64,000 bases of DNA from NCBI GenBank assembly GCA_963810935.1, contig CAWEPK010000005.1, positions 64,001 to 128,000 on the forward strand, in the 5' to 3' direction. How positions within the stretch are numbered: the first letter of the stretch is position 1; each line of letters starts with the position of its first letter. The notes below the pieces were generated by a model. It worked only from the letters and a program-made list of their open reading frames with translations. It was not told the DNA's origin and made no database searches. Shown here piece after piece: positions 17,179-21,976 of this stretch. Source of the stretch: an uncultured delta proteobacterium (GTDB taxonomy: Bacteria; Desulfobacterota; Syntrophorhabdia; Syntrophorhabdales; WCHB1-27). The position numbers and the translations under genes are program-made.

Positions 17179-18849
17179 CTACCTATGTTTCTCTTTGCTT
17201 CTAAGCAAATCTTGTGCCCAAAGTTGTTTCATATGATCCTTGATTCGAGTTCTATTGTCAGCTATGATCGCCTGCCACTCTGATGATGCGGGTTTTTTCT
17301 TCCTAACGACAAAAAGGAACAGTTGCATATCATTACCCCAGGCATCCTGCAATTGTTTTACGCTCTCCGATAGGTCTGACAATGGAACTGCACGTTTATT
17401 GTTATCGATCAAGCAAGTCAAAGTCTTAAATTCCGTTCTTACCAGACGTGATGCTTCTCCAGATATCATCGCCGTTTCCTCATACCGTATGGCCGAGTAG
17501 CTCTTGAATTTGCCCCTATCAGTTTCGAGAATAAACTGCTCGTCAGTGAAAAGGACTTCCTTCAGGCGATGTTCGTCCCTAATAACGAGATGTTCATTCG
17601 CCTTTTCGACATAATCGTTGAGCAGCGGCCTTCTTGAGGACAAATTATCCCCATATACACCCTCACTTCTTATCAAAACCTTTAGTTCTTCATCGAAGGC
17701 ACGGTACTCACTTATGTTTTTGAAGACCGCTTTAGCGTACTTTTCCCTAAAAAGAACTATCCGAAGAAGTGGACATAATATTTCGAAATCATTTTTGAAT
17801 TCCTCATCGGTTTGCTGGCAGATGCGAAACGCCTCCCTCAGCTTCGACGTGAGAACGTCATCGTTGAAAGGAAGTTCATCTATGATATATCTGCTATAGT
17901 GAAAGTCGTCAATCTTAAGCAAATTTCCCAGAGGATGGCCAGGCTGTTTCGAATGCCTTAGCAACCTCATGATGATCTGCTCCATAGCCGTATCCGTCAG
18001 CACCACGTGCGGATGGTAGTAAAGCCATTTGTACAACTTGTAACGCTCAAGAAAGAAGGCTTCGACCGTGCTAAGGGCAGACATGGAGGGCATTACTTGA
18101 TAGTATTTTCCCGCATTATCCCAAAATAAAACCATTGACTCCACGAGTCGAGTAAGGTCGTATTGGCCAAATCCAATTCCACTCGCAATGCCGTCCCTGA
18201 TGATGAAGTCAGCGCGATCAGCGTCCACGTCCGACGAAACAATGCCATGAATTGTAGCAAATACGTTCAAAGGTTGAGGGCCAAAAATGTTTAGCAACTT
18301 GTCCTTGTAGTCATAGCCACCTTTCAATAAAGGATCAAGCTCCGCGTTATCTCGTATCAGACAGAAGGTCGCAAATTCATGAATGGGTGGCGCTTTTCCA
18401 TCAGCCTTCTCTGCAAAGCGGTTGAAGGCAGGATCTTTGCTATACAAATCAACCCCATCCTCTCCTATAACCGTCTCGCTCAGGTGGGACAGAGGTAAAT
18501 GACCAAGGTCATGGAGCAAGCCGGACAACCTTACGAGTTGCAAGAACAGTTTTTTACTTTCCTCCAAGTCCTTTCCGCCAAGGGACTTCTGACAAAGCTC
18601 AAGGAAGTGAAGCCGATCATCCTTGTCTGACATCTCTATTGCATAGGATGCCATTTTGCCCGCTAATTCCATCGTTCCCAAACTGTGTACGAAGCGATCC
18701 ACATGGTGAGATGGATACGTGAAATATGCGGTTGAGCTTTGTTTGATGTTCTGAAGCCGAAGGAAGATTCTGGTGTTTATGATCTCTGTCTCAAGGGGGC
18801 TTAAGTGTATATAATTATGTACAGGGTCTCGAATTACTTTCTGGGCCAT
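17179..18849 (-). CDS. HD-domain phosphohydrolase, dNTP triphosphohydrolase (SAMHD1/YwfO-like) family
   Basis: IRDPVH, RLQNIKQ, RFVHSLG, LLHDLGHLPLSH, DADRADFIIRD, R-x2-LYKWLYYH. Confidence 0.85.
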   Translation of the reverse strand: MAQKVIRDPVHNYIHLSPLETEIINTRIFLRLQNIKQSSTAYFTYPSHHVDRFVHSLGTMELAGKMASYAIEMSDKDDRLHFLELCQKSLGGKDLEESKKLFLQLVRLSGLLHDLGHLPLSHLSETVIGEDGVDLYSKDPAFNRFAEKADGKAPPIHEFATFCLIRDNAELDPLLKGGYDYKDKLLNIFGPQPLNVFATIHGIVSSDVDADRADFIIRDGIASGIGFGQYDLTRLVESMVLFWDNAGKYYQVMPSMSALSTVEAFFLERYKLYKWLYYHPHVVLTDTAMEQIIMRLLRHSKQPGHPLGNLLKIDDFHYSRYIIDELPFNDDVLTSKLREAFRICQQTDEEFKNDFEILCPLLRIVLFREKYAKAVFKNISEYRAFDEELKVLIRSEGVYGDNLSSRRPLLNDYVEKANEHLVIRDEHRLKEVLFTDEQFILETDRGKFKSYSAIRYEETAMISGEASRLVRTEFKTLTCLIDNNKRAVPLSDLSESVKQLQDAWGNDMQLFLFVVRKKKPASSEWQAIIADNRTRIKDHMKQLWAQDLLRSKEKHR

Positions 18850-19484
18850 AATAGCTTCATATCAATGTTGCGAGCAATTAAGAACGGCATCAGCAGGCAA
18901 GCACAAGGTACATGGGCCTCTCCGTTACATGCGTTGTCTTCTCCATTTGTTTTGCGCCGATGCCCATACCTGCACACTTTCTATTATACTTACCACACTG
19001 AAGCAGAAAACAAAACATTAAAAGTTGTTGTTTTTGCTGGCCACCGCCTGTCATGCTCTTAATTATCTTGATAATAAGCGCTTTTCCGCCTCTGGGATTC
19101 CTGAAACTCCGGCGCTATTCTTGAGCACAGTGGATCGCCCTGGTTTTCACGACAACTGGCTTATCATCCTAGGCAACATCAGTGGGTCTTTGCATACCAT
19201 GAAATCCCATTTCCCCAGCCGTCCCCAGTTGTTCACTACTATGGGCCTTAACCTGTGAATTTAAAAGGGTTTTGGAAAGACTGTATAGTGAAATGTATAG
19301 GAGGGGTAAGTATGAAGATCGCAGAGATTGACAAGAATAAAACAGAGAAAATCTTTATCAGCATTGAGGAATACCGGAGTCTCTATGCTATAAAAGCCCT
19401 CTTCCACAGGGACGGATAAAAAGGCTACCCTCTTTCTCTTAAGCGATGGATGCACATCGCAAACCAAGGAAAGGGAGGTAGCCA

Positions 19485-20558
19485 ATGGAGATTGATAGGG
19501 TACAGGATTTTGTGGTTGAAGGTAAAGAGGTTTTTATCGGTTTGGAAGACTCAAAGAAGACCTGGAAGATAGCAGTTCGGTGCGACAGGATGGTGATCCA
19601 CCAGGTATCCATGGAGGCAAAGTATGTCTTGCTGAAGCAATACCTGAGAAACAGGTTCCCCGGTTGCACGGTCCATTTGATGTACGAAGCAGGCTTCAAG
19701 GGGTTCAACCTTCACGATCTTCTTGCCGAAGACGGCATCGACTGCGTGGTGATCCCTCCCCATATGGTGACGGAGCCGAAGGCAAACAAGGTTAAGACCG
19801 ATAAAAGGGATGCAAACCGTCTCGCCCGCATCCTGGAGAGCCACGATTACGGGGACCCCTGCTGTGTACCCGACAAAGAGAGGAGGGAGGACCGGCAGGT
19901 AAGCCGTACCATAATCGCCATACAGAAGGATATCATCGGTAACCGCAACCGCATCCGCAAGCTCCTCGACTTTCACGGGATCGAGGGCCCCTTTGCCGGT
20001 AAGAGCGAAGGGGCGAAAGGAGTTCGAGGGTCTTCGGACATTACCCCTGAGCGATCCCTTAAGGGCAGCTCTGGGCTCGCTTTTGACCATACTGGAGGAA
20101 CTGTGGGGCCAGCGTGCGGTCTTGAGGGACTATCTCCGGGGTCTGTGCAAGAAGGAGCGTTATAGAAAGCCCTACGAGGTCGCAAAGAGCATCCCCGGCA
20201 TAGGGTGGTTCACAGCCATCCGCCTGATATTAGAGTGGGGGAGGATCTCTCCCGTTTCGGAAGCGGGAAGAAGATCGCAGGCTTCGTGGGGTTGGGCTGC
20301 AGCGAGCATTCGACGGGCCAGACCGAACGGAAAGGTCGTATCACGGGCATGGGGTCGGGGTTCATACGGCATATCCTGGTCGAGAATGCCTGGATAGCGA
20401 TCAGAAAGGACCCGGCCCTGCTGTCCAAGTTCTCACGGGTATGGCGGTCGAGCGGCAGTAAGAAGAAAGCCATAGTGGCAGTTGCCCGTACTCTTATTGT
20501 GCGCCTTCGGGCCTGCATGCTTTCGGGCAGGCCTTATACGGTCGGAGTTATTAGATAG
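19485..20558 (+). CDS. IS110-family (DEDD/RuvC-like + Tnp20) recombinase with two apparent frameshifts near 19990 and 20238
   Basis: FIGLEDSK, YEAG, KTDKRDA, SIPGIG, SEHSTG, KKAIVAVAR motifs across ORFs 19485-20165, 19993-20397 and 20205-20558. Confidence 0.92.
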
Positions 20559-20561
20559 GAT

Positions 20562-20733
20562 GAGCCTGACGGAAGAGGACCTTAACGGAACAAGGGCGTA
20601 CAACGCCACGTACGCTGTATTAAAGAACGGCCCGGAGTATGTTGACGCCCGTTCCTCTTTTTTCGAAAAGCAGACACATGTGGGTTGGACCACGAATAGC
20701 AGCTTGCAAAGAACCTCCTCTTCAAAAAGGCTC
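20562..20733 (+). ncRNA. Predicted bridge/seek RNA of the IS110 element
   Basis: Closing stems GAGCCT/AGGCTC and GAAGAGGA/TCCTCTTC; loop 1 holds ACGTACGCT (20608-20616) and CCGGAG (20632-20637), matching the target flanks; loop 2 holds ATAGCAG (20696-20702), identical to the IS right end 20880-20886. Confidence 0.75.
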
Positions 20734-21136
20734 GCGCTTCGGCCGCGGACCTGTGTAAGGTCGTCGGCCTCGCGCTCGCTATCGGATATGTACTCATAAT
20801 AACAAGGGAAAGTCATGGACTGACCCATAAAGAAAAGGGGGTAGCAAAAGCCCGCTGGAAGAATCCGTTGACTTTTATCATAGCAGGCGTACGTTTGTAG
20901 ACCTTCGGGTGTACTGGAAGGATGAAGTGGGCGAGTATAAGTCGTCAAAGAAAGGAATTGCCCTTTACGATGAGACCATTGACCCGGTTATCGAGGCGCT
21001 CAAGAAAGCGAGTAAGGCCCTTGAAAAGTGAGACAACCTATTCCTCTCGCGCCCGCGTATATAAATCACGGAATCTATCCGTGGTCCCCTTCAACCGGCT
21101 GTATCCTAGTCCTATACCTCTCGCGTTTTTTGTCAT

Positions 21137-21712
21137 TTGCGCGTCAACCATCATCCCTATGCACCTTCAACGAAGCTTATCGAACGGTACCAAACCGACT
21201 GTCTTGAACAAGGGCATCAGAGAGATAAAGAGGGCAAGGTTGTACCAGGAAACATGCCAGCGACGATAAACCGGCATGTCGCTGTCATGAAACAAATGTT
21301 TACCAAGGCCGCCGAGTGGGAAATGGTCGAAGAAGAACGCTCAAAGATCGTCCACAAGGTGAAGCTGCTTGAAGAGAACAACAACAGGCTACGTTTTCTG
21401 TCCAAAGACAAATGCCAAGCCCTTGTGAAGGCTTCTGACGCGCACCTCAGACCCATTGTTATCTGTGCCCTTAATGCAGGGGTGAGAAATGGCGAAATCT
21501 TTGGGCTAAAGTGGGACGATGTAGACCTGAAGCACAGTTTCATCCTTCTACAAATCACAAAGAACGGGGAGGGCCGCGAGATACCGATCAACAGGACACT
21601 CAGAGCAACCTTCGATGACCCTCTACGCGGGAACGAAAGAACGGCCCAGGCGTCTCGATATCCCATACGTCTTCCAGGTATACAAAAACTATACAATCGG
21701 GAAGATGTATGA
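21137..21712 (+). pseudogene. Truncated tyrosine recombinase (phage-type integrase)
   Basis: ATINRH, RLRFLS, ALNAGVRNGEIFGLKWDDVD, TKNGEGREIPIN; no HxxR or catalytic Tyr region; ends ~30 bp from tRNA-Cys. Confidence 0.8.
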
Positions 21713-21744
21713 TCGGGTGATGTTAGTTAAGTTGTTGAAATTAG

Positions 21745-21819
21745 TGGAGGCGGCATCCGGATTTGAACCGGAGAATAACGGTTTTGCAGACCGCTGCCTT
21801 ACCACTTGGCTATGCCGCC
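21745..21819 (-). tRNA. tRNA-Cys(GCA)
   Basis: GGCGGCATAGCCAAGTGGTAAGGC...CTGCAAA...GGTTCAAATCC...GCCGCCTCCA cloverleaf with encoded CCA. Confidence 0.97.
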
Positions 21820-21825
21820 ACTTGA

Positions 21826-21890
21826 GGAGCGGGCACGCTTTCACCCGCGACATATGTGTTTTTGGAGCGGGCAACGTCTCCACCCGCGAC
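21826..21890 (-). repeat. Two degenerate tandem copies of the tRNA-Gly 3' end
   Basis: GGAGCGGG..ACG...ACCCGCGAC at 21826-21851 and 21862-21890 versus the true tRNA end starting at 21902; period ~38-39 bp. Confidence 0.75.
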
Positions 21891-21901
21891 GCTTTTGTAT
21901 T

Positions 21902-21976
<75 letters not shown>

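Follow-up and report, generated by a model that had tools for sequence, protein, structure and literature searches.

An IS1111-type insertion sequence with a predicted bridge/seek RNA gene in its right end, from an uncultured anaerobe of the Syntrophorhabdales neighbourhood

The closest described systems are insertion sequences of the IS1111 group, for four members of which seekRNAs have been demonstrated (Siddiquee et al. 2024, PMC11187229). According to that paper, the marks of the group are a downstream non-coding region, sub-terminal inverted repeats of 7–17 bp and the motif GL-P----S(t)G, and the guides of the IS1111 seekRNA are ordered so that the top-strand match lies 5′ of the bottom-strand match, the two overlapping in the target. 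A second study reports that every guide pairing of IS621 takes in the core, and it predicts bridge RNAs for 93.0% of IS1111 elements, placing them in the right end (Durrant et al. 2024, PMC11208160). The class has been known since 2024; the mechanism considered below is not new, and the element described here is a well-supported further example of it. We found no publication joining Syntrophorhabd- and IS110; the supplementary tables of Durrant et al. may list relatives.

The window, by which we mean the whole 64,000-nt stretch of DNA analysed, carries an insertion sequence that belongs to the IS1111 group of the IS110 family, and the stretch flagged in its right end by a first-pass annotation is very probably the bridge/seek RNA gene of this element (coordinates in Table 1). 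The annotation had called the element IS110; the family stands, but the group is IS1111 and not the IS110 group proper. Compared by description with the published accounts of ISEc11, ISPa11, ISKpn4 and ISPst6, the element shares with them a long non-coding region 3′ of the gene and sub-terminal inverted repeats, and its guides follow the order given for IS1111 seekRNAs, a top-strand match and then a bottom-strand match. Its recombinase has 358 aa, against the 330–350 aa quoted for the IS1111 family. Going by how the records of its relatives are named, the host belongs to the uncultured anaerobes around the Syntrophorhabdales, and the RNA is predicted from DNA, unlike the ISEc11-type seekRNAs. 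The likeness to the predicted IS1111 bridge RNAs, as outlined by Durrant et al. (2024), extends to the location, the two loops and the complementarity to target and donor.

With IS621 and ISCro4 the element shares a two-loop RNA with separate target and donor loops and the full-length fold of the recombinase. A 2-nt core that reads CT on one strand and lies inside the guide pairings is common to IS621 and the window element, as is the use of repeat elements as natural targets. In contrast, the RNA of IS621 precedes the gene, being located in the left end, and has the guide order in the loop reversed, whereas the RNA of the window element lies downstream; and the sub-terminal repeats of IS621 have only 2–3 bp, compared with 12 bp and a 2-nt gap here.

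The limits of the element were set by comparison of copies. A DNA search of the own genome returned four copies of 19380–20886 with 99–100% identity and unlike flanks, and metagenome contigs break at 19373/19374 and at 20886. The left junction reads ...CCGGAG followed by TCTCTATGC... in all four copies, and at the right junctions ...CATAGCAG is followed by GCGTACGT, CGTACGT, CATACGT or GCGTACGC. Since AG is present at both junctions, the core is AG (CT on the opposite strand), and the joined donor of the element is ATAGC-AG-TCTCT. The sub-terminal inverted repeat, CTATG-(CT)-ATAAAAG at 19383–19396 versus CTTTTAT-CATAG at 20872–20883, comprises 12 bp with a 2-nt gap; it was read from the sequence by eye, the gapless repeat finder not having listed a repeat with such a gap. 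TTGAC...CATAG is invariant in 12 of 12 right ends. Non-coding DNA amounts to 328 nt downstream of the gene, whose stop codon is at 20558, versus 105 nt upstream, in agreement with the non-coding end of about 330 nt that had been noticed at first.

Table 1. Positions of the element, its recombinase gene, the predicted guide RNA and the target site in the window
Feature	Position	Strand	Basis or remark
Whole IS1111-type insertion sequence, 1507 bp	19380–20886	+	IS110 family; four copies share exactly this stretch
Recombinase (transposase) gene, split into three frames	19485–20558	+	ORFs; PF01548, PF02371
Left target flank CCGG + core AG	19374–19379	+	Same in 4/4 copies; equals target-loop 3′ strand 20632–20637
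Core dinucleotide AG	20885–20886 (element's copy); 19378–19379 (target's copy)		
Right target flank GCGTACGT	20887–20894	+	Read from sequence and copy comparison
Left sub-terminal inverted repeat CTATG-CT-ATAAAAG	19383–19396	+	Kept in left ends of homologues
Left-end hairpin	19423–19483 (arms 19423–19440 / 19466–19483)	+	Inverted repeat; pairs recombinase Shine-Dalgarno GGGAGG
Outermost stem GAGCCT/AGGCTC	20562–20567 / 20728–20733		
Guide RNA gene including outer stem GAAGAGGA/TCCTCTTC	20572–20723	+	Fold; predicted RNA
Outer stem GAAGAGGA/TCCTCTTC	20572–20579 / 20716–20723		Also listed as inverted repeat
Conserved two-arm core of guide RNA	20585–20713	+	Covariance model R1: 107.1 bits, E 6.5e-17
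Target loop 5′ strand, ACGTACG + CT, ACGTACGCT	20608–20616	+	Covaries with right flanks
Target loop 3′ strand, GCCCGG + AG	20630–20637	+	Covaries with left flanks
Donor loop 5′ strand CAGACACA	20671–20678	+	Family register: core + first 6 nt of left end (AG TCT CTA)
Donor loop 3′ strand AATAGCAG	20695–20702	+	ATAGCAG = last 7 nt of element
G+C-rich hairpin directly 3′ of guide RNA, without U tract	20734–20775	+	Present in 11/12 homologues
Right terminus: TTGACT 20868–20873, repeat CTTTTATCATAG 20872–20883, then C + core AG	20868–20886	+	

The recombinase gene of the window copy is spread over three overlapping ORF pieces (19485–20165, 19993–20397 and 20205–20558, all on the + strand), and the protein is intact, with 358 aa, in two of the three sister copies (L002 and L003; intact form at L002:1606–2682). 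The N-terminal RuvC-like DEDD domain PF01548 (DEDD_Tnp_IS110) was found in the first ORF piece (E 1e-09) and the C-terminal Tnp domain PF02371 in the third (E 1.1e-11). Against NF033542, the equivalog 'IS110 family RNA-guided transposase', the intact protein scored 173.6 bits (cut-off 140). A structure predicted for the recombinase (pLDDT 79.1, pTM 0.65) gave its best fold matches, all of the top 10, with chains of ISCro4 (9T56) and IS621 (8WT6, 8WT9) over the full length, with E values of 8e-13 to 6e-11, TM scores of 0.60–0.76 and an identity of only 20–22%. A sequence search with the recombinase among solved structures yielded no matches at E up to 0.01, so that the relation to IS621 is seen at the fold level only. 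The NF033542 match and the IS621/ISCro4-like predicted fold support the reading, offered in the first-pass annotation, of an RNA-programmed recombinase.

Residues D22, E68, D106 and D109 are invariant in 12 relatives of the recombinase; they probably correspond to the DEDD tetrad of IS621. S274, S277 and G279 are conserved among the relatives, with T or S at position 278, and the loop bearing this conserved S/T-G (residues 273–290) has a pLDDT under 50 in the structure model. The C-terminal motif reads GLGCSEHSTG, that is, this clade has C in place of the P of the IS1111 motif GL-P----S(t)G; a motif of the exact type, GLIPSEYSSG, occurs in a distant clade (L019, L020, L026 and L027). The exact protein is public but unnamed, in an 8-member cluster without names. 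With one genome searched per species, relatives of the recombinase turned up at 32 loci, mostly in MAGs labelled Syntrophorhabdales or delta proteobacterium. One of them, L005, encodes a 73%-identical recombinase together with the same RNA; it comes from a MAG labelled Nitrososphaerales archaeon, in which its contig measures 3.7 kb. Being short and dominated by a mobile element, this contig may be mis-binned, the alternative being transfer.

The first-pass annotation had described a fold of about 172 nt behind the recombinase gene, and every string and coordinate that it gave was recovered from the sequence as written. The minimum-free-energy fold of 20562–20733 contains the stems that had been named and reaches −61.7 kcal/mol, versus −43.55 ± 4.07 kcal/mol for 200 dinucleotide shuffles (z −4.46), none of which folds as well. 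The outermost stem, GAGCCT/AGGCTC, was rejected as part of the functional RNA, as it is not conserved (43.3% of cells paired). The outer stem next to it is moderately kept, with 69.7% of cells paired in a sequence-based alignment of 20 homologues. The regions 3′ of the stop codons of the relatives align, with stems conserved and loops variable, and the core, 20585–20713, is made up of two internal loops, each bounded by stems, that are conserved across 20 homologues. In the 20-sequence core alignment 30 pairs were defined, for which 89.6% of cells are paired, versus 27.7–43.9% with the 3′ partners slid; compensatory changes occur in 13 of the 30. RNAalifold alone gives the same stems of arm 1 and arm 2, with 9 of its 19 pairs compensatory, and 26 further distinct sequences are 94.3% paired on the model structure, to which their alignment was fitted. 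The orientation of the RNA, on the + strand, follows from G-U pairs that do not vary.

Covariance model R1, built on this core, matches only the four element copies in the own genome, with no orphan RNA copies, and, across 96 genomes of the order, it hits 22, among them G000. A search of Rfam 15 at E up to 10 over 19000–21500 returned no family; the sole match, to DUF3800-X on the minus strand, is at chance level (16.5 bits versus a gathering score of 38.2, E 8.4). With no match above chance, no described RNA family in Rfam 15 fits, and the window RNA is set beside the predicted IS1111 bridge RNAs by description.

An alternative reading takes the structure for a regulatory part of the 3′ UTR of the recombinase mRNA, or for a terminator of this mRNA, without guide function. 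It stands directly behind the stop codon, and next downstream is a conserved G+C-rich hairpin (20734–20775) with 13 consensus pairs, 4 of them with compensatory changes. Yet this hairpin has no U tract, and the two terminator-like sites found in a scan of 19300–20960 (1.9 expected) are both on the minus strand, with none on the + strand. A terminator would also leave unexplained four loop strands that covary with flanks and ends, and we consider the alternative reading very improbable. A promoter scan of the same interval listed one promoter-like site (1.2 expected), which is inside the gene, and none ahead of the RNA.

The state of the window copy bears on whether its predicted guide RNA is still in use. 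Relative to three near-identical sisters it has 5 substitutions and 6 small deletions. Two of the deletions break the reading frame of its recombinase gene, which is short of 2 nt near 20009 and of 1 nt near 20235, and one small deletion near 20725 lies in the outer RNA region. As its recombinase frame is broken, the window copy could at most be mobilised in trans by the intact sisters. None of the sequencing runs listed as containing the stretch is an RNA run. The fold could accordingly be a relic, the RNA gene of a decayed copy no longer expressed or used, with matches that record the programme of an active ancestor. We regard this as unlikely: each of the four guide stretches and every conserved stem read the same as in the intact copies, and the only substitution within the core, a G at 20587, creates an additional base pair; model R1 gives the window copy 107.1 bits versus 105.3 for the sisters. 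The stem GGAAC/GTTCC, listed at first as part of arm 1, is indeed present in the window copy but is specific to it, the three sisters having A at the place of 20587. An RNA made from the window copy could, moreover, serve intact recombinases in trans. Short-read contigs, which are collapsed over all copies, show the intact letters at six of six indel places, and some of the frame breaks may be assembly errors. Repair of the transposase, which had been suggested for experiments, is unneeded because intact sister copies exist.

Reading the element as a guide-RNA carrier, we compared the strands of the first loop with the insertion site. The 3′ strand of the target loop equals the left flank plus core (CCGGAG, 20632–20637 and 19374–19379, identical as first reported) and therefore can pair with the bottom strand, and the 5′ strand, ACGTACG-CT, could pair with the top strand across the core AG and the right flank; both pairings overlap at the 2-nt core. 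For the 3′ strand the match is 8/8 with copy L002 and 6/6 with the window copy. For the 5′ strand it is 9/9 with L002 and 8/9 with L003, and the window copy and L004 match at a 1-nt offset. The reported complementarity between ACGTACGCT and the right flank GCGTACGT is correct except that the window copy has one extra G next to the core, the pairing with L002 being 9/9 without it.

Loop and flank covary among homologous elements, as the first-pass annotation had proposed to check. Set 1 comprised 15 elements, one locus per distinct RNA, and the reverse complement of each 5′ strand was compared with the right flank. Over 7 nt in strict register, the own flank was matched at a mean of 4.6 positions versus a cross mean of 1.9; with a +1 shift allowed in all comparisons, the values were 5.47 and 2.44. 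For the left flank (5 nt next to the core) they were 3.33 for own and 1.27 for others. None of 20000 permutations reached the observed sum for the right flank in strict register, the right flank with shift, or the left flank. Left out of set 1 were further copies (L002–L004, L013, L015 and L021–L025), elements whose right end was uncertain or absent (L026 and L027) and loci that stop short of the RNA (L029 and L031–L036).

Set 2 comprised 11 further elements found by the RNA model search, and for these the right flank gave 4.82 for own versus 2.0 in strict register and 6.27 versus 2.81 with shifts of −1 to +1, again with 0 of 20000 permutations reaching the observed sum each time. Not counted here were matches that are set-1 elements (L054, L056, L059, L061, L062, L068 and L076–L078), L075, which is a second copy of L057, loci with no right end by pattern (L064, L066, L070, L072, L080 and L081), and L074, a weak 50-bit match with an aberrant loop. 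Taking both sets together, right flanks agree with the guide at ≥5 of 7 positions in 17 of 26 elements in strict register and in 23 of 26 with a one-base shift. The shift is needed for six right flanks, including that of the window copy (0/7 strict, 7/7 shifted). The right flanks of three set-1 elements (L018, L028 and L030) fail the guide, with 1, 0 and 1 of 7 positions, and no displaced guide matches were found near them. Many of the compared elements are kin (e.g., L008, L009, L010, L065 and L071), so that the permutation counts overstate independence.

A sibling element in genome G077 (L057, L075 and L081), with 10 model matches in that one genome, shares the left guide CCGGAG with the window element but has another right guide, directed at CATACT; the pairing of its left donor guide is perfect.

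The target that the guides would program, CCGG-AG-(G)CGTACGT, was sought in the own genome, where 13 uninterrupted CCGGAG(G)CGTACG sites (L037–L049) were found, whereas the reversed pattern gave 3. The sequence is CCGG-AG-[IS...AG]-(G)CGTACG where a site is occupied and CCGGAG(G)CGTACG where it is empty, without duplication beyond the core dinucleotide; the four copies have (G)CGTACG or CATACG on the right and CCGGAG on the left in every case. The covariation of structure and of flanks, the four copies and the 13 empty sites together bear out the two-loop guide RNA with target ACGTACG-CT-CCGG that had been put forward at first. The target sits in two families of imperfectly palindromic repeat elements of about 100 nt, grouped by eye: family 1 carries CCGGAG-G-CGTACG and has 6 empty members, and family 2 carries CCGGAG-CGTACG and has 6 empty members, one a variant. 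One of the 13 empty sites is outside any repeat. Sibling elements of other genomes are associated with similar repeats in other registers; the right flank of L015, for example, contains CCGGAGGCGTAC.

The window copy itself lies outside the repeats, in a small PC4-like gene that offers a 14-nt chance match. The downstream part of this split gene (19312–19379 plus 20887–21031) matches PF02229 (PC4, a single-strand-binding domain; E 1.2e-07), and excising 19380–20886 in silico restores its reading frame. Upstream of the split gene, a 556-aa protein is encoded at 17179–18849 on the minus strand; its HD domain scores 22.2 bits versus a cut-off of 22, and an HD-associated region is below threshold. 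On the other side, the interval 21137–21976 holds a short tyrosine-integrase-like ORF of 191 aa, in which PF00589 covers only profile positions 2–86 of 172, next to tRNA-Cys (21745–21819, minus strand) and tRNA-Gly (21902–21976, minus strand); the ORF may be a remnant of an integrated element.

These targets were also weighed against a different account, in which protein–DNA contacts and the hairpin of the repeats find the target and the loops match only because they reflect the element's ends and remnants of targets. In its favour, the elements usually target structured repeats, and three elements are found at sites unlike their right guide. With a one-base shift permitted, however, 23 of the 26 elements show loops that change along with the flanks, while the stems are fixed; the window copy sits outside repeats, in coding sequence that merely holds the 14-nt match; and RNA guidance has been shown by experiment for the protein family. 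We therefore give recognition without RNA hardly any credence and retain guidance by the RNA.

For the second loop, the identity of ATAGCAG (20696–20702) with the last 7 nt of the element (20880–20886), already noted in the first-pass annotation, was confirmed, so that the 3′ donor strand matches the right end of the window element at 7/7 positions. The register of the 5′ donor strand was set by homologues, e.g., TAGACAC with left end AG-TGT-CTA in L006. The family form of this strand, (T/C)AG-xxx-CT, is the reverse complement of the core AG, three variable left-end bases and CTA. By hand tally, the window strand CAGACACA matches TAGAGACT at 5 of 8 positions in the family register. The short AGAC match to the left end that had been proposed falls in the same stretch but is better read two positions further on; the alternative two positions away is possible because the left end begins TCTCT. 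At the position 3 nt from the right end (C, G or T), guide and end are the same in 26 of 26 elements, also by hand tally. A hand tally of 9 distinct guide/left-end combinations showed that left-end position 3 pairs in 9/9, with all four base pairs seen, position 2 in 7/9, and position 1 in 5/9 plus one G-T.

The spacing between core and right pairing differs among insertions. An extra G separates the core AG from the paired right flank in the window copy (20887) and in L004 and is absent from L002 and L003, and three other elements (L017, L055 and L073) have the same one-base shift at the right junction. Copy L002 is without the G that is carried by its nearest empty paralogue, L037, and by all 6 empty members of that repeat family; a loose end of a metagenome contig behind 20895 shows an occupied site with G in a context like that of the G-lacking repeat family. 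A spacing that is not fixed in the clade, such that exchange of the top strand may slip by one base relative to the bottom strand, would fit these junctions, and we consider it distinctly improbable. If true, such a slip would be new for bridge recombinases: a bulge could be accommodated in IS1111-type recombination, or a base even lost from the target, which would bear on off-target rules.

By analogy with IS621, ISEc11, ISPa11 and ISKpn4, the element would excise as a circle in which the right end is joined to the left end. TTGACT (20868–20873) and TATGCT (19384–19389), both conserved among the relatives, would be 17 nt apart in the excised circle, and they may form the −35 and −10 boxes of a sigma-70-type promoter that arises at the circle junction only. 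The DEDD/serine recombinase would be made together with the downstream RNA and would bind it, and the RNA would hold the circle junction and the target CCGG-AG-(G)CGTACGT in one complex. Strand exchange would take place at the AG core, with no duplication except the core at both ends. Neither the empty window site nor a circle junction was seen among joints sought in four DNA runs. Loose ends of metagenome contigs behind 20886 show more right flanks of like kind that are absent from the four copies of the genome, which may give a weak hint of recent movement.

Conserved blocks were also found in the ends outside the RNA. The left-end hairpin is kept in sequence in 14 of 14 left ends, with zero compensatory changes, and the Shine-Dalgarno within it has a mean unpaired probability of 0.167 in the fold of the left end; the hairpin probably keeps translation of the recombinase low. 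A right-end box at 20834–20845 (AAAGGGGGTAGC here, GAAAGCGGGTAG in relatives) is complementary to 19424–19435 in the 5′ arm of this hairpin and lies about 41 nt from its end of the element, versus 44 nt for the hairpin arm, and could be a second inverted repeat for protein binding. The idea that this box frees the ribosome site in circle-junction transcripts found no support: when the right end was folded with the left end behind it and the result compared with the left end alone, the Shine-Dalgarno was unpaired at 0.167 in all four equilibrium folds. A further conserved block at 20815–20823, ATGGACTGA (ATGG.CTGA in 11 of 12 relatives), with a purine-rich stretch 5′ of it, looks like a start-stop mini-frame.

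The element offers a clean natural example of its class, in that the guides fit the four copies, the 13 empty sites and the one insertion that lies outside the repeats. The RNA family, present in 22 of 96 genomes from one order of anaerobes, supplies 26 guide/flank pairs on closely related scaffolds. They reveal at which loop positions of IS1111-type systems pairing is constant and at which a mismatch or a one-base shift is tolerated; such systems are less studied than IS621. Orthologues with intact recombinases are candidates for programmable recombinases, and the roughly two dozen siblings, with guides for different registers of related repeats, are a natural record of reprogramming.
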